From Roseburia sp. (GTDB lineage: Bacteria > Bacillota > Clostridia > Lachnospirales > Lachnospiraceae), in the NCBI GenBank assembly GCA_045121975.1, contig JBGVHB010000059.1, positions 16,337 through 80,336 of the forward strand: a stretch of 64,000 nucleotides of DNA, read 5' to 3'. The translations under genes and the position numbers were made by a program. Under the pieces are notes generated by a model. It was not told where the DNA came from, made no database searches, and worked only from the letters and a program-made list of their open reading frames with translations. This document shows, piece after piece, positions 23,315-36,881 of this stretch. The first letter of the stretch is position 1. Every line of letters starts with the position of its first letter.

Positions 23315-23341
23315 TTAGCACTCAAATGAAATGAGTGCTAA
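23315..23341 (+). promoter_or_regulatory. CIRCE element (HrcA operator)
   Basis: TTAGCACTC-N9-GAGTGCTAA upstream of groES. Confidence 0.97.
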
Positions 23342-23390: not shown

Positions 23391-23675
23391 ATGAAATTAG
23401 TACCTTTAAGTGACAGAGTAGTTTTAAAACAGTGTGAAGCAGAGGAAACCACAAAATCAGGCATCATCCTTACAAGCAGTGCACAGGAGAAACCACAGGA
23501 AGCAGAAGTAATCGCTGTTGGTCCAGGTGGAATCGTTGATGGAAAAGAAATTACCATGCAGGTAAAAGAAGGACAGAAGGTTATCTATTCTAAATATGCA
23601 GGAACAGAAGTAAAATTAGATGGTCAGGAATACATTATTGTAAGACAGAACGACATCTTAGCAGTAGTAGAATAA
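23391..23675 (+). CDS. groES: Co-chaperonin GroES
   Basis: PLSDRVV, TKSGII, AVGPG, KYAGTEV. Confidence 0.98.
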   Translation: MKLVPLSDRVVLKQCEAEETTKSGIILTSSAQEKPQEAEVIAVGPGGIVDGKEITMQVKEGQKVIYSKYAGTEVKLDGQEYIIVRQNDILAVVE

Positions 23676-23695: not shown

Positions 23696-25324
<1,629 letters not shown>

Positions 25325-28338: not shown

Positions 28339-28446
28339 GAAATTTAGGGACGCAGCCTAAATTCCGAAATCTGGGGACGCAGCCTAAATTCTGAAAAATA
28401 GGGACGTAGCCTAAATTTCGAAATTTAGGCTGCGTCCCTATTTTTC
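28339..28446. repeat. Three tandem 27-bp units plus one inverted unit (core GGGACGYAGCCTAAATT)
   Basis: Units 28339-28365, 28366-28392, 28393-28419; inverted copy 28420-28446 is 26/27 to unit 3. Confidence 0.92.
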
Positions 28447-29536
28447 ATTTTCGTAGCAGACATTCTAATAATCTGCTGTTATCCTCTGGGTTCATAAAGC
28501 AGAAGCGGATATATTTGTTATCTAAGAATGGGAAAGTTGAGCAGTCGCGAATCATCATTTTTTCACGAATGGTGCGGTCAAATAAATCTTCGGAAGTTAA
28601 GTCTTCGCGTAAAATGCGGGCTAACAAAAAGTTTCCGCTTGGTGCATATACCTTAAAATCACCGGAGGCGATTAAAGCATCATAACAGCGTTTGCGTTCT
28701 GCTGAAATCAGGTTTCTTGTGGCATTTATGTAGTCTGTGTCTGCAAACATGGTTTCTCCGGCGATGACAGCAAGAGAGTTAATTGTCCAAGGATTCTTTC
28801 TGGTATTGATTTCCTTGATTAAATCGCGGTTTCCGGTAATTGCATAGCCAAGACGTAAGCCCGGAGCAGCAAAGAATTTAGAAGTTCCACGTAAAATAAC
28901 AATATTATTATAGTAATTTGTCAGCGGAACAGAATCAATCTCGTCCATATTTTCTGCAAACTCTACATAAGTTTCATCCACCATAACATAAATATCATAT
29001 TCCTTGCAGGCATCTAAGATGTGGCGCATGTCTTTTCTTGTAATACAGGAAGAGGTAGGGTTATTTGGATTGCAGATGACCAAAAGGTCAATTTTTTCGT
29101 TCAAGTGAGCAATAAAATCCTCTACATTTAATTTAAAATCATCCTTTTCTTTTAAAGAATAATAAAGTGTTGTACCACCGCCTAAAGAAATCTCACGTTC
29201 ATATTCCGAATAGGTTGGGCCAATAATCATTGCTTTTTTCGGATGCTCAATTTGGATGAAAAGAGAAATCAGCTCAGTAGAGCCATTTCCAACGATGACA
29301 TTTTCATAATCGGTATTACAATAATTGGCGATACATTTGCGCAGGGAAGTATATTCTCTGTCCGGGTAGCTTGTGATTGCATCAATCTTTTCTGCAAGTG
29401 TGCTTTTTAAAAGCGGAGAAACGCCGAGCGGGTTGACATTTGCGGAAAAGCTGATAATTTCTTCTTTTTTAATGCCATAGATGGCTTCTATTTTTTCTAA
29501 ATCACTTCCATGAAAGTGGTCTTTGTGTTTTATCAT
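28445..29536 (-). CDS. PLP-dependent class I aminotransferase (CobD threonine-phosphate decarboxylase / HisC-like)
   Basis: HGSD, FSANVNPLG, CNPNNPT, DETYVEF, TSKFFAAPGLRLGY. Confidence 0.85.
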   Translation of the reverse strand: MIKHKDHFHGSDLEKIEAIYGIKKEEIISFSANVNPLGVSPLLKSTLAEKIDAITSYPDREYTSLRKCIANYCNTDYENVIVGNGSTELISLFIQIEHPKKAMIIGPTYSEYEREISLGGGTTLYYSLKEKDDFKLNVEDFIAHLNEKIDLLVICNPNNPTSSCITRKDMRHILDACKEYDIYVMVDETYVEFAENMDEIDSVPLTNYYNNIVILRGTSKFFAAPGLRLGYAITGNRDLIKEINTRKNPWTINSLAVIAGETMFADTDYINATRNLISAERKRCYDALIASGDFKVYAPSGNFLLARILREDLTSEDLFDRTIREKMMIRDCSTFPFLDNKYIRFCFMNPEDNSRLLECLLRK

Positions 29537-29613
29537 TGATTACTCCTCCAAATTAGTTTATAATTTATTATAGTCATTGTTCGTAAAAATGCAATGGAAA
29601 TCCGGTAAAGAAA

Positions 29614-32600
29614 GTGAAAGCAGGTGTCGAATTGCGTAAAAGAATGAAACAGCTTGCAAGTGGAAAATTCGAACATACTGGACCAAAGCTTTCCTTATCT
29701 ACAACAAAGATTGAGCTTGAGGTGTTAGAAGGCAGGGATGCCACTGGTGAATTTACGATTACCAGCACAAATCATGTGAAGATGAGAGGAGTTATTTATT
29801 CGTCTAATCCACGAATGGAATGTCTGACTCCACAGTTCGAGGGAGAGGAAGTAAGGATTCGGTATCAATTTCATAGTGAAGGCTTAATTGAAGGGGATAT
29901 TCAAAAGGGCGACTTTTTCATTGTCTGCAATCAGGGAGAATATAACCTTTCTTTTGTTGCGTCCATTTCTAAGCTTTATGCGGATTCCTCCATTGGAAAA
30001 GTTAAAAATTTAACAGACTTTGCGAAGCTTGCGAAAGAAAGCTTTGAAGAAGCATACCGCCTGTTCTATTCGAAAAATTTTCCAAACATTATCAAGCCGC
30101 AGGAAGAAAAAGAACGTCTTTTATATGAAGCAATCCAGCACGAAGTACCATCCGGGCAGAAGGTAGAGGAATATCTTACTGCCATTGATTATAAAAAGCC
30201 GGTACAGATTTCTCTTGCGCAGGACGAATTTGAATTTTATGAGGTAGAGATTTCAAGAAAAGAACAGCTTGAATTAAGAAAAAATCAGTGGGGTTACACA
30301 TCCATTCAGGTATCCTCCGATGCAGAATTTTTGATTCCATCAAAAACAAGAATTACGGCAGAAGACTTTTTAGGAAGTACCTGCTTTTTTGAATATTATA
30401 TTGATAAAGAAAAAATGCATGCCGGTAAAAATTATGGCACGCTGACATTCGAGTATCCGGGCGGAATTTTACAGACTGCCATTATGGCATCTGTGGCTGT
30501 AAAGGCAGAAGAACAAAAGCCGTCGCTGCATCGGGAAATTACAGAGGGACGAATCCAGTTAATGAAGCTTTACATGGATTACCGCCTGAAAAAAATTGTA
30601 ACAGGTGCATGGGCAAAGCAGTCAATTGCGATTTTAGACCATCTGATGATGATTGAGCCGAACGAAGAATTGTTTTGTCTGATGAAGGCACAGGCACTTA
30701 TTATTAATAAACAGCGGCAGGAAGCAAGCTGGATTTTAGATGACTTTAAGAGAGAATGCATTGATAGAACAACGCCTATCTGGGGGTATTATTTATATCT
30801 TTGTACACTAATGGAGCGCGAAGAATCCTATGTTGACCGATTGACAGAAGAAATCGAGGAATTATTCCGCAGGCATCCGAAAAGCTCTCTTTTATTCTGG
30901 GTGCTGCTTTTTGTAAAAGAAGAGTACTATCGGAATGGGGCAAAGCGGTTAAGAGCATTAGAGCAGTGGATAGGAAATGGAAATGATTCGCCATTTTTCT
31001 ATCTGGAGGCATATTATTTAATCTGGCAAGACCCATATCTTTTTGTGAAATTAGGAAAATTTGAACTGAAAATTTTAAATTGGGCAAGGAAACAGAACGC
31101 GATTTCTAAGGATATTGCATTGCAGGTGTTAAATCTTTTGTCAAGCCAAAGAGAATATGAGCCAAAAGTATATAAGCTTTTATGCAGCTGTTATGAAGTG
31201 AATCCATCCGAAGAAATGCTTTCTGCAATCTGTTCTTATTTAATCAAAGGACAGAAGCTTACGAAAGAGTACCATAAATGGTATCAGCTTGGAATTGAGC
31301 AGGAGATTCGTATTACGAATTTATATGAAGCATTTTTGATTTCAATGGAGCGTACAGAGATTACCTCCGTACCAAAGGTGATACAGATGTATTTCCAGTA
31401 TCACAACCATTTATCCTATCGGCAGCTTTCTGTACTTTATGTGAATATTATTGCAGGAAAAGAAAAACAGCCGGAGGTCTATCACAAATACCGGAGAACG
31501 ATTGAGCAGTTTGCAATGGAGCAGATAGAGGCTGGAAGGATTGATGATAATCTGGCAGTCATCTATGATGATATGCTACAGCTTGGCATCTTAAATGAAG
31601 AGTTGGCGCATCATTTGTCAAAGATATTGTTTACACATAAGCTAACCTGCCCGGATAAAAAAATGACAAAGGCTGTGATTGTACAAAAGCAGATGAAACA
31701 GTGTCAGGTGGTAAACTTTGTGAATCAGACAGCTTATTTTCAGGCGTACTCAAAGGATTATTGTATTGTGCTTGTGGACGCCTATGGAAACTGCTATGCG
31801 CAGAAGCGTTTTTATCAGGATGAACCGCTGCTTCGGGCTGAGCGTTATATGAAACAGTGTTTAGAGGCAGCACCAAAGGAACTGCCATATCTGATACAGT
31901 TTTTTGCAAAAAAAGAGCGTTATGCTGAATTTTATGAAAAGCAGGAAGATTATTTCCCGGTAATCCTACAGTCAGATGCGATTACTGATAGATATCGTGC
32001 AGCATTGCTTCCGGTTGCAATCGAATATTATAGCGAGAAGCACCATGAGGAAAGCATGGAGCAGTATTTGAAAAAGGCAGATTTTCGTCATATTTCGCCA
32101 AAGAGCAGAATTCTTCTTGTAGAGCTTTTGGTGGAGCTTCATTTATATGAGGAAGCTTATTATCAGGTAGAGCAGTATGGATATGAGAAGTTGGGAAGTG
32201 CAGCGAGAGTAGCATTGTGCAGTTACGAGATTACGCGCTGCGGATTTGAAGAGGATGAATTTTTATTAGGTTTTGCAGAGACTACCTTTTTCACCGGAAA
32301 ATATAATGATGTCATGTTGATTTATCTTTGCAAATTTTACCAAGGACCGACGAAACAGATGGCGAAGTTGTGGAAGGTGGCTGGCAAATTTGAAATTGAT
32401 ACCTTCGATTTGGAGGAGCGGATTATTACGCAGATGCTTTATTCTACAGATTATGTAGATTGTATTGACGATATTTATGACAGTTACTATTCCGGCGGAG
32501 GAAGAGAGCTTGTATGCATGGCATATCTGTCTTATTTTTCTCATTATTATCTGGTCAATGATATGCTTGTGGCAGAGCAGGTATTTTTACAGGTGCAGGA

Positions 32601-33174
32601 GCGTCTGTTAGAGGAACAGGAATTAAATGATGCCTGCAGGCTTGGACTGATGAAATATTATTCTGAGCAGGAAAAATTAAGCGAGGTACAGCGGAAGCTG
32701 TTAGATGGATTGCTGCTGCAATATACCTGCAAAAACATCTATTTTTCTTTTTATAAGAAATATGAGAAGTCCTTGATATTAAAATATCATTTTTATGATA
32801 AGAATTTCATTGAATATCATGCAAAGCCGGGCAAAAGAGTTGTTTTGCATTATACCTTTGACAATGGCGAGTATCAGGAAGAGGATATGCAAGAGGTGTA
32901 TGACGGAGTTTTTGTGAAGCGTATCACACTTTTCTTTGGAGAGACATTGCAGTATTATATTTCAGAAGAGGATGATGCAAGAAAACAGAAGGTTGCATCA
33001 AGTAATCAGATTTCTAATAATGATATGTACAGTGAGGAAGACCAGAGCCGCTATGCATTGTTAAATGATATGCTGCTTCAGGCGGCATTGCAGGAAAATG
33101 CACAGTTGAAGCGTGCGATGAAGTCATATCATGGAATGAAGAAATCAACCGAGCAGATATTTAAACTGTTATAG
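29614..33174 (+). CDS. Large hypothetical protein (DUF5717-like; beta-rich termini, alpha-repeat core)
   Basis: 1186-aa ORF, first of four closely spaced genes; family recalled, not searched. Confidence 0.7.
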   Translation: MKAGVELRKRMKQLASGKFEHTGPKLSLSTTKIELEVLEGRDATGEFTITSTNHVKMRGVIYSSNPRMECLTPQFEGEEVRIRYQFHSEGLIEGDIQKGDFFIVCNQGEYNLSFVASISKLYADSSIGKVKNLTDFAKLAKESFEEAYRLFYSKNFPNIIKPQEEKERLLYEAIQHEVPSGQKVEEYLTAIDYKKPVQISLAQDEFEFYEVEISRKEQLELRKNQWGYTSIQVSSDAEFLIPSKTRITAEDFLGSTCFFEYYIDKEKMHAGKNYGTLTFEYPGGILQTAIMASVAVKAEEQKPSLHREITEGRIQLMKLYMDYRLKKIVTGAWAKQSIAILDHLMMIEPNEELFCLMKAQALIINKQRQEASWILDDFKRECIDRTTPIWGYYLYLCTLMEREESYVDRLTEEIEELFRRHPKSSLLFWVLLFVKEEYYRNGAKRLRALEQWIGNGNDSPFFYLEAYYLIWQDPYLFVKLGKFELKILNWARKQNAISKDIALQVLNLLSSQREYEPKVYKLLCSCYEVNPSEEMLSAICSYLIKGQKLTKEYHKWYQLGIEQEIRITNLYEAFLISMERTEITSVPKVIQMYFQYHNHLSYRQLSVLYVNIIAGKEKQPEVYHKYRRTIEQFAMEQIEAGRIDDNLAVIYDDMLQLGILNEELAHHLSKILFTHKLTCPDKKMTKAVIVQKQMKQCQVVNFVNQTAYFQAYSKDYCIVLVDAYGNCYAQKRFYQDEPLLRAERYMKQCLEAAPKELPYLIQFFAKKERYAEFYEKQEDYFPVILQSDAITDRYRAALLPVAIEYYSEKHHEESMEQYLKKADFRHISPKSRILLVELLVELHLYEEAYYQVEQYGYEKLGSAARVALCSYEITRCGFEEDEFLLGFAETTFFTGKYNDVMLIYLCKFYQGPTKQMAKLWKVAGKFEIDTFDLEERIITQMLYSTDYVDCIDDIYDSYYSGGGRELVCMAYLSYFSHYYLVNDMLVAEQVFLQVQERLLEEQELNDACRLGLMKYYSEQEKLSEVQRKLLDGLLLQYTCKNIYFSFYKKYEKSLILKYHFYDKNFIEYHAKPGKRVVLHYTFDNGEYQEEDMQEVYDGVFVKRITLFFGETLQYYISEEDDARKQKVASSNQISNNDMYSEEDQSRYALLNDMLLQAALQENAQLKRAMKSYHGMKKSTEQIFKLL

Positions 33175-33202
33175 GTAGAGGATAAAGAGAAGAGGATGAA
33201 GA

Positions 33203-34429
33203 ATGGAGTACGGCTATTACATCGGATTAGATATTGACGATAAAAATGTAGTTGTCAGCGTATTTCAAAATGGAATGAAAGAGCCGGAAACTGTCAGCAC
33301 AGTTGCAGGAAGTGAGCTTTTTCAGATACCGTTGCTTTTAAGCAAAAAAAGAGGAATCGGTCAGTGGTTTATTGGTGAGGATGCCAAAAAGATTGCTGCC
33401 GGACAGGGAGAAGAGCCTTTTTCTAATATTCTTTCGATGGCACTTTCTAAGGAAGAAGTGCTAGTGGAAGAGGAAGCATATCAGGCAGTCGATTTGCTGA
33501 CGCTTTATATTCGAAAGGTTCTGCTCATAGCAGTGCGTTTTGGTGCACAGATGCTGCCGGATAAGCTTGTGATTTCTGTGGATGAAGTATCTAAGGACGT
33601 GACAGAGCTGTTTGCTTCTGTCGGAGAGCGGCTTGGATTAGATAAGAAAAATATCACTGTGATTGACAGAAAAGAAGCATTTTATTATTTTGCATTAAAT
33701 CAAAAAGCGGATTTGTGGCTGCATGATGTCTATCTTTTTGATTACCGCACAGAGGATATGGTTTGCTGTCATTTAAAGCGCAATCAAAAAACAGTTCCTC
33801 AGCTGATTACGATAGAAAGTAAAGTGAAAAAGATGCTTCCGGCAAAGGATGACGGAAGGTTTTATCAGATATTGCTGGATTGTTTTCGAGGAAACATCAT
33901 ATCTTCAGTATATCTGGTAGGAGATGGTTTTGAAGGCGGCTGGATGAAGAGAGCACTTTCTTATATGTGTCAGGGAAGACATGCGTTTATGGGAAAGAAT
34001 CTTTATTCAAAAGGCGCATGTTATGCGGCAATCGTATCAAAAGAGGGCACAAACTGGCCATATGCGTACATTGGCGACAATGAGATGAAGGTCAATGTCA
34101 GCTTAAAGGTAAGAAACCGCCGCAATATGGAATTTTTTACGCTGGTTTCTGCTGGGGACAACTGGTATGAAGCAGAAGGCAGCTGTGAAGTGATTTTAGA
34201 CGGAACGCCGGAAATTGATTTCTGGTTACAGTCACCACATGGCAAAGATGCGAAGGTAGAAAAGCTTAAGCTTGCAGATTTGCCGGAGCGTGAGAATAAA
34301 ACAACGAGACTTCGTATTATGGCAAAGCCTGTTTCAGATACTAAGGTGCAAATCAAAATCCGCGACATGGGCTTTGGCGAAATTGTAAAAAGCTCAGAAA
34401 AAACGTGGGAATATATTATGTCGTTATAG
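33203..34429 (+). CDS. Degenerate Hsp70/actin-fold protein (DUF5716_C-like)
   Basis: IGLDID phosphate-1 motif, QIP..WFIGEDAK, C-terminus LPERENKTTRL..IRDMGFG resembles an Hsp70 SBD. Confidence 0.65.
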   Translation: MEYGYYIGLDIDDKNVVVSVFQNGMKEPETVSTVAGSELFQIPLLLSKKRGIGQWFIGEDAKKIAAGQGEEPFSNILSMALSKEEVLVEEEAYQAVDLLTLYIRKVLLIAVRFGAQMLPDKLVISVDEVSKDVTELFASVGERLGLDKKNITVIDRKEAFYYFALNQKADLWLHDVYLFDYRTEDMVCCHLKRNQKTVPQLITIESKVKKMLPAKDDGRFYQILLDCFRGNIISSVYLVGDGFEGGWMKRALSYMCQGRHAFMGKNLYSKGACYAAIVSKEGTNWPYAYIGDNEMKVNVSLKVRNRRNMEFFTLVSAGDNWYEAEGSCEVILDGTPEIDFWLQSPHGKDAKVEKLKLADLPERENKTTRLRIMAKPVSDTKVQIKIRDMGFGEIVKSSEKTWEYIMSL

Positions 34430-34438
34430 GAGAAAAGC

Positions 34439-35272
34439 GTGGGCGAATTATTATTATGCAATCAGGAAATGGCAGCAATGCCATATTATCTGGAGAGCAT
34501 TTCTCTAAATGTTTATTCAATGGAAGAAATCTGTTATTATATAGAAAATAACCTTTATCTGCTGGATACCGATTTTATGGATATGGAGCTGTGCAGCTGG
34601 GTGGAACAGGAACTTGGTGAGAAACAGCTATCGGAGCAGCTGAAAAATGTGATTTATCAAAATGGCAGTTTGGATAAGTTTGTTTCGCTGATTTTGCAAA
34701 GCTGTTGTTATTGCAGTAAGGAAACAGAAGCACACATTATGGCAGTACTTAGTGAGATGCAGAGTAAATCAGCTTTTGAGTGTGGCAAAATCCGGGCAGA
34801 CCGTTTTATGGAGAATCAAAGGTATTATAACGCTGTCATGGAATACCGCAGACTTTTGCAGATGGAGGAAGAAAATAAAAAACAGCCGGAATTGTCTGGA
34901 AATATCTGGCACAATCTTGGTACAGCCTATGCGAGATTATTCTTATTTCAGGATGCGGCAGAATGTTTCTTAAGCGCGTATTCGAGAAATCAGAATAAAG
35001 AATCTTTACTGGCGGCAATGGCAGCCTTTCGCTGTGGAAATGACATTGACGGTTTAGAAAAGATGCAGAAGGCTTATGGCATCAGCATGGAAGAACTCCA
35101 TGAGATAACGGAAGGCTGGACACAAATCAGCAGGAGTACAGAAATAACAGAATTTGAACAGCAGATAGATATGCTGTTTGAAGGTAATTCTGACAGTGAA
35201 GAAGAAAAACAACAGATTCTTGAAATACTTGAGAACTGGAAAACAGAGTACAAAAAAAATTGTGGAATGTAA
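34439..35272 (+). CDS. TPR-containing hypothetical protein
   Basis: GNIWHNLGTAYARLFLFQDAAECFLSAY TPR-like helices. Confidence 0.7.
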   Translation: MGELLLCNQEMAAMPYYLESISLNVYSMEEICYYIENNLYLLDTDFMDMELCSWVEQELGEKQLSEQLKNVIYQNGSLDKFVSLILQSCCYCSKETEAHIMAVLSEMQSKSAFECGKIRADRFMENQRYYNAVMEYRRLLQMEEENKKQPELSGNIWHNLGTAYARLFLFQDAAECFLSAYSRNQNKESLLAAMAAFRCGNDIDGLEKMQKAYGISMEELHEITEGWTQISRSTEITEFEQQIDMLFEGNSDSEEEKQQILEILENWKTEYKKNCGM

Positions 35273-35281
35273 GGGTAGGAT

Positions 35282-36451
35282 ATGTGGTTTTTTAAGAGAA
35301 GAAAAAAAGAGAAGACACTGGAGAAAAAATTTGACGACTTAAATCAGGAGGTTTTAACCGAACGGGATAAAAAGAATCCGAAAAAGGTAGAACAGTACGT
35401 CGTAGAGCATTTAAAACAGATGGTGGAGCTGACAAAAGAGGTCGAAGAGGAAAAGGCTGAATATAAGATGATTACCTCTTACCTTAACGATATTCATACG
35501 ATTGAAGGTCTGCCGGAAGAGGAGCACGATAAAATCGTAGATATTGCGCAGAATGTTGTCAGCTTAAATCAGGCGCGGTATGAATTTTTGCATGCAGAAA
35601 GAAAGATTTCTGACGCGCAGTATGTACAGATGCAGCAGGAAGAAGCTGAAATTCCAAATGCGATTAGGCGTTTAAAGGAAAATGAAAAATATCTTGCAAA
35701 AATCAAACAGGATTTAAAATATTTAGAGCGTGAAAAAGAAGAATGGTTCTTTTATAAGGATGACTTAAAACGTGAGCAGAAGAGTCTGCAGAATATTATT
35801 TATGCGGTAACAGGATTTGCGATTTCTCTGGCAGTTTTATTTTTGATTTTACAGATTGTATTAGAGCTGCCAATGCAGATGGCATGGACAATCTTGCTTT
35901 TTGCTGCTGTTATGGTAATTTGTCTGTTATATCTTAAAATTTTAAATGCGCAGTCAGAGTATAAGCGGGCAGAAGCGAATGCAAATAAGGCAATCGTGCT
36001 TCAGAATAAAGTAAAGATTAAGTATGTAAATATGCAGAATGCAGTAGATTATGCCTGTGAAAAATATCACGTAACTTCTTCCGCAGAGCTGAACAAAACA
36101 TGGGAGGCTTATATGGAGGCAATTAAGCAGCGTGAGAAGTTCGAAAAGAATAGTGATGATTTGGAATACTATTCCTCACGTCTGGTGCGTGAATTATCCA
36201 AATTCCGTCTTTATGATGCGAAGGTATGGATTCCACAGGTGCAGGCAATTGTAGACCATAAGGAAATGGTTGAGATTACGCATAGTCTGATTACAAGACG
36301 ACAGAAGTTAAGAAGCAGAATGGAATATAGTATGGGAATGGTAAAAAACTTAAGAGCAGAGGTAGATAAGCTGATGTTAAATGTCAGCGCAATGAAACCT
36401 GAAATGCAGGAAATCCTCAATTCCATCGACCAGATAAGCGGAGCTAATTAA
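35282..36451 (+). CDS. Coiled-coil membrane protein with two central TM helices
   Basis: Long heptad-rich arms flank the hydrophobic hairpin IIYAVTGFAI..VICLLYLKIL. Confidence 0.75.
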   Translation: MWFFKRRKKEKTLEKKFDDLNQEVLTERDKKNPKKVEQYVVEHLKQMVELTKEVEEEKAEYKMITSYLNDIHTIEGLPEEEHDKIVDIAQNVVSLNQARYEFLHAERKISDAQYVQMQQEEAEIPNAIRRLKENEKYLAKIKQDLKYLEREKEEWFFYKDDLKREQKSLQNIIYAVTGFAISLAVLFLILQIVLELPMQMAWTILLFAAVMVICLLYLKILNAQSEYKRAEANANKAIVLQNKVKIKYVNMQNAVDYACEKYHVTSSAELNKTWEAYMEAIKQREKFEKNSDDLEYYSSRLVRELSKFRLYDAKVWIPQVQAIVDHKEMVEITHSLITRRQKLRSRMEYSMGMVKNLRAEVDKLMLNVSAMKPEMQEILNSIDQISGAN

Positions 36452-36464
36452 GCTCCGCTTTTTT
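36435..36464 (+). terminator. Intrinsic terminator overlapping the stop codon
   Basis: AAGCGGAGCT-AATT-AGCTCCGCTT plus T-tract. Confidence 0.8.
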
Positions 36465-36482
36465 ATGTGATAGGAAATTGCT

Positions 36483-36549
36483 CGTACATAGTGTACGCCA
36501 AGTGAAAACGCGCAGCGTTTTTAGAAGCGTCGCGCGGCGACGCTTTTTT
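36483..36549. repeat. Cluster of three short GC-rich hairpins (REP-like)
   Basis: CGTACA/TGTACG, AAAACGC/GCGTTTT, AAGCGTCGC/GCGACGCTT. Confidence 0.55.
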
Positions 36550-36605
36550 GCACCAATTTTTCAGGCTGACATAAATTATAAAGAGGAAAAGAGAGGAAAA
36601 TTGGA

Positions 36606-36881
36606 ATGAGAAATTATAATATGCCAAATTATACAATGCAGCCGGGAAATATGCCGGGACGCATGGATTATACAAGATGTGGTATGCCAGCTCAGCGGGA
36701 GACTTCATCCTGCGGCAGGAAGGATTCCTGTCTGGAAAGAGATTATGAGGTTGCAATGGCTTATGTGCCTTGGCAGAGCTTTGGCGAACTTTATGAGCCG
36801 GAAAAATCATTAGATGCAGGAACAATATTCGTAGAGATGGATAAACCATTTTTAGGAAGAGGAGGTATGATGCGGCGATGA
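36606..36881 (+). CDS. cotJA: Spore coat-associated protein CotJA
   Basis: VAMAYVPWQ..GTIF.E.DKPF. Confidence 0.9.
   Translation: MRNYNMPNYTMQPGNMPGRMDYTRCGMPAQRETSSCGRKDSCLERDYEVAMAYVPWQSFGELYEPEKSLDAGTIFVEMDKPFLGRGGMMRR

Follow-up and report, generated by a model that had tools for sequence, protein, structure and literature searches.

A four-gene operon was examined in a 64,000-nt stretch of the genome of a Roseburia sp. (assembly GCA_045121975.1, contig JBGVHB010000059.1; this whole stretch is termed the window and all positions refer to it). The second gene of the operon (i.e. gene 2, a member of DUF5716) is a true descendant of Hsp70 in which the three nucleotide-binding motifs, lobe IIB and the helical lid are all missing. 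It lies between a gene for a DUF5717 scaffold protein (gene 1) and a gene for a protein with a tetratricopeptide repeat (TPR) domain (gene 3), and in some genera these three genes are followed by a gene for a membrane protein (gene 4). We consider, with a probability of roughly 0.55, that the operon specifies a stable, ATP-independent and non-enzymatic complex descended from a dedicated multi-Hsp70 chaperone machine, a complex to which no cellular role is assigned here. The features of the operon are as follows.

29536–29572, plus strand: promoter-like region (consensus scan; arrangement recurring 5' of gene 1 in five other genera)
29632–33174, plus strand: gene 1, DUF5717 scaffold (PF18984, E = 1e-279; PF18983, E = 3e-100; structure model with pLDDT 76)
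33203–34429, plus strand: gene 2, DUF5716, lid-less pseudo-Hsp70 (PF18980, E = 5e-107; structure model with pLDDT 82; Foldseek)
34439–35272, plus strand: gene 3, short TPR domain at residues ~110–200 (profile matches), preceded by a family-specific N-terminal domain
35282–36451, plus strand: gene 4, accessory protein with two transmembrane segments (hydropathy analysis)
36436–36460, plus strand: intrinsic-terminator-like hairpin closing the operon (10-bp stem with 6 G-C pairs, T-run)

Gene 2 is a degenerate Hsp70

The gene 2 protein matched the full model of DUF5716_C (PF18980) with an E-value of 5e-107, and its structure was modelled with a pLDDT of 82. When the model was compared with the PDB using Foldseek, 50 of the 50 matches listed were members of the Hsp70 family (DnaK, Hsp110/Sse1, BiP, Hsc70, Ssz1 and others; E-values of 1.6e-18 to 1.7e-13), and the alignments covered the nucleotide-binding domain as well as the beta substrate-binding domain (SBD). 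An earlier reading of this DNA from its letters alone (i.e. the sequence-only reading) had called an Hsp70/actin fold for this protein, and the uniform family membership of the matches listed bears this out. Descent from Hsp70 could also be followed through sequence searches, with significant matches leading from gene 2 to a gene 2-like protein (g2-like) of the eight-gene clusters described below (2e-12), from that protein to Hsp70B of the same clusters (5e-61) and from Hsp70B to DnaK (2e-47).

Motifs and lobes were assessed by alignment of gene 2 with the DnaK of the same genome and with the Hsp70 paralogues of the eight-gene clusters. The phosphate-1 loop reads DIDDxN where DnaK has DLGTTNS, the phosphate-2 loop reads FDYRGE where DnaK has DLGGGTFD and the adenosine motif reads GDGFxGxW where DnaK has GGSTRIP. 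Lobes IA and IB, most of lobe IIA and the beta-sandwich SBD are retained; lobe IIB is occupied at 16 of 78 positions and the helical lid aligns at 10 of 100 positions, the protein stopping directly after the beta-domain. Gene 2 has, in summary, the fold of an Hsp70 and is without its nucleotide motifs and four-lobe organization, its lid and its J-domain or exchange partners. No DnaJ or GrpE domain was detected in genes 1–4 with Pfam or NCBIfam, and the only GrpE gene of the genome lies beside dnaK on a different contig. The earlier description of the operon as chaperone-like holds for ancestry only, the Hsp70-like protein having lost its nucleotide motifs.

The residues that replace the canonical motifs were invariant among 23 orthologues, with D10, D12, D180, R182, G240 and G245 among the invariant positions. 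This invariance argues that gene 2 is under strong constraint, though not for canonical ATP chemistry. The beta-domain ranks with the best-conserved regions of gene 2, over 40 of its positions being invariant in the same 23 orthologues.

Genes 1–3 are a conserved single-copy unit

The distribution of the operon was examined in samples of genomes, and absences given here and below hold for the genomes searched. Of 301 genus representatives of the Lachnospiraceae, 292 (~97%) carried PF18980, as did 244 of 250 high-quality genomes, with rarely more than one match per genome; PF18980 was present in 9/9 other genomes of the family and in 0/290 genomes from the other sampled families of the class. 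Genes 1, 2 and 3 were adjacent and in the same order in all 16 loci inspected from other genera. Genes 1 and 2 are lost together: among five high-quality genomes without gene 2, four were also without gene 1, and the fifth had gene 1 at a contig edge. Genes 1–3 are one conserved single-copy unit, a core gene set that has been kept vertically, and this unit probably makes a multiprotein complex. The sequence-only reading had proposed a membrane-anchored multiprotein machine; the conserved unit and the probable complex stand, and a membrane tether applies only where gene 4 is present.

A natural fusion of genes 2 and 3 was detected as a metagenomic protein (i.e. P0019, 692 aa), in which 275 residues align with gene 3 at 51% identity. 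This fusion is a single sequence, for which a missed stop codon in the assembly is possible.

In the window, four plus-strand open reading frames (ORFs) for 1186 (from a GTG), 408, 277 and 389 aa occupy the coordinates proposed earlier for genes 1–4, with intergenic gaps of 28, 9 and 9 nt. The GC content of the operon (0.38–0.41) matches that of its flanks (0.35–0.44), in agreement with the host-like composition noted before. The promoter-like site consists of TTGATT (29536–41), a 17-nt spacer and TATAAT (29559–64), with an inverted copy of the -10 element, ATTATA (29567–72), directly after it. An arrangement of TTGCC(A/T)-17-(TGn)TATAAT-N1-2-ATTATA also precedes gene 1 in five other genera, and the conserved operon promoter looks sigma-A-like, i.e. 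of the housekeeping type. At the other end, the terminator-like hairpin (36436–36460) overlaps the stop codon of gene 4, and no plus-strand terminator of comparable strength was found within the operon, so that the single shared terminator of the earlier account was recovered. As judged from these sequence features, the four genes are a genuine operon running from one promoter-like site to one terminator. No RNA element was found in or near the operon with Rfam.

Genes 1 and 2 are full-length members of Pfam families (DUF5717_N, PF18984; DUF5717, PF18983; DUF5716_C, PF18980) that are catalogue entries without function. A search of the accessible literature for DUF5716 and DUF5717 found no paper on them, the one text match being an unrelated cancer paper, and the earlier statement that no functional description was known is in line with this outcome. 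A literature search for transposon sequencing (Tn-seq) in Lachnospiraceae likewise found nothing relevant.

The scaffold, TPR and membrane proteins

The longest ORF of gene 1 (29614–33174) begins with GTG and encodes 1186 aa. Homologues are 1180 aa long and align from residue 7 of this ORF, and a TTG codon at 29632 lies 5 nt beyond a putative ribosome-binding site (AGGTG, 29622–29626), an arrangement (AGCAGGTG-N5-6-TTG) that is kept in five other genera. Because of the homologue length and this conserved arrangement, the true start of gene 1 is most likely TTG 29632, giving a protein of 1180 aa. Both Pfam models, DUF5717_N (1e-279) and the C-terminal DUF5717 (3e-100), were covered in full, and the scores of the DUF5717 and DUF5716 models for genes 1 and 2 (930, 336 and 358 bits) lie far above the gathering cut-offs (25, 25 and 34.7). 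Protein identity across genera is 52–90%.

The AlphaFold model of gene 1 (pLDDT 76) consists of a beta-sandwich (residues 46–130), helices, a second beta-sandwich (199–293) and an alpha-solenoid (305–668), followed in the C-terminal half by a beta domain (674–738), a second solenoid (742–1057), a beta-sandwich (1063–1134) and terminal helices. Foldseek returned only generic TPR/HAT superhelical scaffolds (Ctr9, Ski3, SYF1, IFT-A, Naa15 and APC subunits) at TM-scores (structural similarity) of 0.16 or below, and a profile search of the PDB returned nothing; a specific fold relative for gene 1 was accordingly rejected. According to the model, gene 1 is a scaffold built from beta-sandwiches and TPR-like solenoids, and it has no catalytic motifs. 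It was earlier called repeat-rich, which is correct structurally, for the alpha-solenoid repeats, and in no other sense. Residues 1–59 are modelled with a pLDDT below 50, yet many of them are nearly invariant. Conserved sequence combined with predicted disorder is characteristic of segments that become ordered on binding a partner.

Gene 3 had been described as a TPR adaptor. With the single sequence, Pfam TPR models scored under their cut-offs. A profile of 17 orthologues matched designed TPR proteins in the PDB with E-values down to 5e-34 (CTPR3, 2.5e-11) and natural TPR proteins over residues 110–200 (Hop, 3.6e-7; Sti1, 1.2e-6). The TPR domain is present, therefore, at the level of the orthologue profile. 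It comprises about 2–3 repeats and is preceded by a unique N-terminal domain of 110 residues without a known relative.

Hydropathy analysis of gene 4 placed two transmembrane segments at residues 172–190 and 203–221, separated by a 12-residue loop, with Lys/Glu-rich charged helical arms flanking this hairpin on both sides. Of the earlier description as a two-transmembrane protein with long coiled-coil arms, the two segments and the charged helical arms were retained, the arms being judged from hydropathy analysis. Gene 4 has no relative in Pfam, in PHROGs or, beyond coiled-coil noise, in the PDB. With a profile, it was detected in ~52 of 121 genera (~43%), always just 3' of the core genes and on the same strand, and among the 16 loci of other genera it stood directly behind gene 3 in six. 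In five complete genomes without gene 4 at the operon position, it was found nowhere else. Gene 4 is best described as an accessory component, i.e. an optional membrane anchor.

One segment of gene 1 varied between loci. Residues 747–825 (1180-aa numbering; window positions 31870–32106), a 79-residue stretch forming the first helices of the second solenoid, were precisely deleted in seven of ten loci without gene 4 and present in 7/7 loci with it. The deletions seem to belong to one clade, and the three other loci without gene 4 retain the stretch. As a pattern in alignments, this is a weak hint of a docking site for gene 4.

Relatives with intact Hsp70s in sister families

Across the order, DUF5717_N was found in 84 of 151 genomes. 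Some families were fully positive (f81, 11/11; f84, 11/11; f103, 6/6) and others fully negative (f77, 0/11; f95, 0/11; f96, 0/10). In 10 of 12 loci from other families, a cluster of eight genes was present in a fixed order, as listed here.

Gene 1 of the cluster: N-terminal part of the scaffold (~396 aa)
Gene 2 of the cluster: C-terminal part of the scaffold (~890 aa); the two parts are fused to ~1326 aa at some loci
Gene 3 of the cluster: Hsp70A (~559 aa; HSP70, 5e-76)
Gene 4 of the cluster: protein with a C-terminal GrpE domain (565–654 aa; GrpE, 3e-13)
Gene 5 of the cluster: g2-like protein (DUF5716_C, 1.5e-26; HSP70, 1.4e-17)
Gene 6 of the cluster: Hsp70B
Gene 7 of the cluster: Hsp70C (692 aa; C-terminal vWA domain, 1.9e-10, with a DTTGSM motif resembling a metal-ion-dependent adhesion site (MIDAS); e.g. 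L029:11495-13573 and L030:605-2692)
Gene 8 of the cluster: orthologue of gene 3 (385 aa; hidden Markov model of gene 3, 3e-30; hhalign probability 99.2; TPR_2, 5e-26)

By source name, these clusters are from Defluviitalea raffinosedens, D. phaphyphila and metagenome-assembled genomes labelled Epulopiscium sp. Hsp70A, Hsp70B and Hsp70C keep all three nucleotide motifs, with A and B being without a lid. The g2-like lineage is already degenerate in its motifs in these clusters, and its lobe IIB is still present. The scaffold and Hsp70 genes are at separate places in two families.

Hsp70A (L017:5847-7526 and orthologues) has a conserved C-terminal end, (L/I)S(V/I)D(E/D/K)(L/M)Y, which might be bound by the TPR protein of the cluster in the manner of the EEVD tail in eukaryotic Hsp70. 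In some of the eight-gene clusters (L018:11828-13150, L020:6489-7826, L025:7017-8366 and L026:10417-11664), the scaffold genes are preceded by a conserved protein of ~440 aa that has three transmembrane segments and whose C-terminal part is long and helical. It belongs to no Pfam family and has no detectable homology to gene 4, and it may have the same anchoring role in the long clusters.

The Hsp70 repertoire differed between the two groups. Five genomes with long clusters contained DnaK and the cluster paralogues. No orthologue of Hsp70A, B or C was found in the genome of the window or in five complete Lachnospiraceae genomes; in four of the latter DnaK was the sole match, and one has an extra, distant Hsp70 with 37% identity. 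The genome of the window encodes DnaK (with GrpE and DnaJ) and a close DnaK paralogue. This second paralogue (L031:1468-3270) is 59% identical to DnaK and lies beside an XRE-type regulator; it was rejected as a trans-acting partner of the operon, as a second paralogue of similar closeness is absent from all five of the complete Lachnospiraceae genomes. The simplest reading of these distributions is that an ancestor of the Lachnospiraceae lost every ATP-using part of the machine and kept the rest, the operon of the window being the ATPase-less remnant.

Proposed mechanism and comparison with known systems

On the reading favoured here, the three core proteins would form a single complex that works without ATP. 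Gene 2, the dead Hsp70, would act in it as a permanent clamp, its conserved beta-domain holding a fixed partner segment with no cycling on clients; candidates for the clamped segment are the unstructured N-terminus of gene 1 and the N-terminal domain of gene 3. The clamp is suggested by the conservation of the beta-domain, by the conserved and disordered N-terminus of gene 1 and by a Foldseek match to the core of the ribosome-associated complex (RAC), and contact between genes 2 and 3 is supported by their natural fusion. The products of genes 1–3 would thereby constitute a platform, tethered to the membrane where gene 4 exists and expressed from a housekeeping-type promoter in growing cells, and any ATP-driven remodelling that is still needed would have to be supplied by the housekeeping DnaK. 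The identity of the proteins and the reading as the remnant of a dead Hsp70 are much more secure than the clamp and platform.

Several points weigh against this account. The weakest link is that no J-domain was found in the operon, which leaves recruitment of DnaK unexplained. That the proteins of genes 1, 2 and 3 bind one another is something we infer, and the reduction from the eight-gene to the short form is drawn from parsimony. Loss of the canonical motifs is, moreover, no proof of lost nucleotide binding, and the invariant D12, D13, D180 and R182 could form a different site.

Gene 2 resembles the canonical Hsp70 system (DnaK/DnaJ/GrpE) in the fold of both domains and in its significant sequence chain to DnaK, and the eight-gene relatives in sister families carry a protein with a GrpE domain. 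It differs from that system in having no lobe IIB, lid or motifs, and the operon is without a J-domain, GrpE and the controlling inverted repeat of chaperone expression (CIRCE). Gene 3 resembles the Hop/Sti1 co-chaperones in its TPR profile match and in being always beside, and at least once fused to, an Hsp70-like gene; it differs in having only ~2–3 repeats and the unique 110-residue N-terminal domain.

Pseudo-Hsp70s that serve as structural subunits have been described for eukaryotes, with Ssz1 as an example. The Ssz1-Zuo1 RAC (PDB 6sr6, 5mb9 and 7x3k) is like the operon in having a degenerate Hsp70, which in RAC is a permanent, non-cycling subunit alongside active paralogues and in the operon would play a comparable part. 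It is unlike the operon in that no J-protein partner was found here and the Lachnospiraceae have lost their dedicated active paralogues. RAC entries were among the Foldseek matches of gene 2, and one of them is titled as a RAC core with a pseudo-substrate bound to the SBD of Ssz1; the clamp hypothesis was modelled on this entry. The likeness to RAC is a functional analogy and not orthology. A first bacterial RAC-like arrangement, in which a pseudo-Hsp70 locked by its SBD onto a giant TPR scaffold close to the membrane would recruit DnaK to a process found throughout the Lachnospiraceae, is a tentative extension that we regard as rather unlikely.

The GAP1-N2 GTPase-centric conflict systems include an HSP70-GrpE theme in firmicute gene neighbourhoods (Kaur, Burroughs, Iyer and Aravind, 2020; PMC7159879), which combines vWA, HSP70, GrpE and an HSP70 without a peptide-binding domain with a beta-sandwich-repeat protein to which TPR or DnaJ is fused (PMC7159879). 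The eight-gene clusters found in sister families have a similar set of domains. In the clusters examined, neither GAP1 nor the GTPases that define these systems were seen, and the distribution found here is that of a core gene. With Pfam and NCBIfam, no GTPase domain was found in the operon of the window or in the long-cluster proteins scanned, GAP1 itself being without a library model, and the supplement of PMC7159879 does not list these taxa with the Hsp70 systems. Because the GTPases were unseen and the phyletic pattern is that of core genes, the operon was not filed with the GAP1-N2 systems.

Weighing of alternative explanations

An alternative to the static complex is an active, atypical chaperone in which gene 2 still binds and hydrolyses nucleotide by means of invariant acidic and basic residues of its own, gene 3 is a Hop-like co-chaperone and gene 1 is a dedicated platform for clients or recruitment. 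The substituted positions of gene 2 (D10, D12, D180, R182, G240 and G245) are invariant and not drifting, the TPR profile of gene 3 matches those of the co-chaperone proteins Hop, Sti1, Tah1, RPAP3 and SGTA, and the ancestry lies in a working Hsp70 machine with a GrpE-domain protein, all of which are compatible with this explanation. We nevertheless judge it unlikely, as gene 2 has neither the glycine-rich phosphate-2 loop nor the phosphate-1 Thr-Thr, the adenosine-holding lobe IIB is deleted, neither an exchange factor nor a J-domain is encoded in the operon, and the lineage of gene 2 was already degenerate in the eight-gene clusters beside three intact paralogues. Somewhat more doubtful again is a structural, cytoskeleton-like or coat-like assembly that handles no clients, in which gene 1 would oligomerize into a membrane-proximal lattice organized and anchored by genes 2–4. 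Beta-sandwiches combined with long alpha-solenoids are typical of big assembly scaffolds (cf. the Foldseek matches Ctr9, Ski3, IFT-A, Naa15 and APC subunits), membrane proteins accompany short and long clusters alike, and the conserved TTG start suggests a tuned stoichiometry. The scaffold matches are, however, generic repeat similarities (TM-score of 0.16 or below), self-association of gene 1 has no support, and gene 4 is missing in over half of the genera.

The sequence-only reading had offered defence and sporulation or envelope morphogenesis as roles, and neither is supported here. An anti-phage or conflict system akin to the HSP70-GrpE theme is suggested by the Hsp70s, the GrpE-domain protein, the Hsp70-vWA fusion and the beta-sandwich/TPR scaffold of the long clusters. 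At E ≤ 0.1, none of the four proteins matched a PADLOC model, and a search with PHROGs was likewise uninformative; neither the short clusters nor the long ones that were scanned were found to contain a GTPase or effector domain; and the operon is single-copy, near-universal (~97% of genera), syntenic, vertically kept and host-like in composition, in direct contrast to defence genes, which are patchy and carried on islands. With neither database in support and the inheritance pattern of a core gene, a defence system was rejected and is considered highly improbable. A machine for envelope or sporulation morphogenesis was suggested by gene 4 being a membrane protein and by cotJA (36606–36881; PF11007, 2.8e-16), cotJB and cotJC, which start 155 nt after gene 4. 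The terminator separates the operon from cotJA, and cotJB and cotJC are beside the operon in 0/16 loci from other genera. SpoIVA was detected in 78 of 121 genera and 64 of 97 high-quality genomes, and DUF5716 in all but one genome of the sample, so that many genomes without SpoIVA have the operon (e.g. G026, G304, G305, G315, G322 and G354). Nor does gene 4 track SpoIVA, which was present in 36/52 gene 4-positive and 42/69 gene 4-negative genera (cross-counted by hand). Given this phyletic pattern, the unconserved linkage to cotJ and the sigma-A-like promoter, a role in sporulation was rejected and is the least probable of the explanations considered.

Membership of the heat-shock regulon was also rejected. 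No CIRCE element was found near the operon within three mismatches, and the only one in the window lies before groESL, 6 kb away. This element (TTAGCACTC-N9-GAGTGCTAA, 23315–23341) is perfect and is located ~50 nt 5' of groES (23391–23675) and groEL (23702–25324).

Significance

In the human colon, Lachnospiraceae rank with the most abundant bacteria, and they are major producers of butyrate. About 6 kb of coding sequence is kept in single copy in ~97% of the genera of this family without a paper having been found on it. If the preferred reading is true, a bacterial pseudo-Hsp70 subunit and its surviving eight-gene ancestor would provide a natural series from an ATP-driven machine to a static complex, and the operon would offer microbiome research a family-specific marker and a possible target. 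If the RAC-like extension were also true, the operon would represent cell biology that defines a lineage ranking with the most abundant ones in the human gut.

Neighbouring genes and additional observations

The gene upstream of the operon is transcribed divergently.

28445–29536, minus strand: CobD/HisC-like pyridoxal phosphate-dependent enzyme (PF00155, 6e-56; TIGR01140, 277 bits, under the cut-off of 290)

This enzyme shares a 95-bp control region with the operon and is not part of the complex. An orthologue (E ≤ 1e-60) was detected in 55 of 121 genera and, by coordinates, abuts the operon in ~35 of 48 assessable genomes; a gene of this type is in the same divergent position at 5 of 12 eight-gene loci of other families. 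It is a persistent neighbour of the operon and not obligatory for it. A second CobD-like paralogue is present on a different contig. Within the 95-bp spacer, TATAAT-TT-ATTATA (29559–29572) represents two back-to-back -10 hexamers, one per strand. A conserved AAAAATGCAA(C/T)G motif follows this element and may serve as operator, leader element or weak -35 of the minus strand.

Downstream of the operon, an ORF of 128 aa on the minus strand (36463–36849) has no family match and overlaps cotJA on the opposite strand; it is probably not a gene. The sole Rfam match in the window at the gathering threshold was a 6A RNA (RF02925, 66 bits) at 53220–53271.

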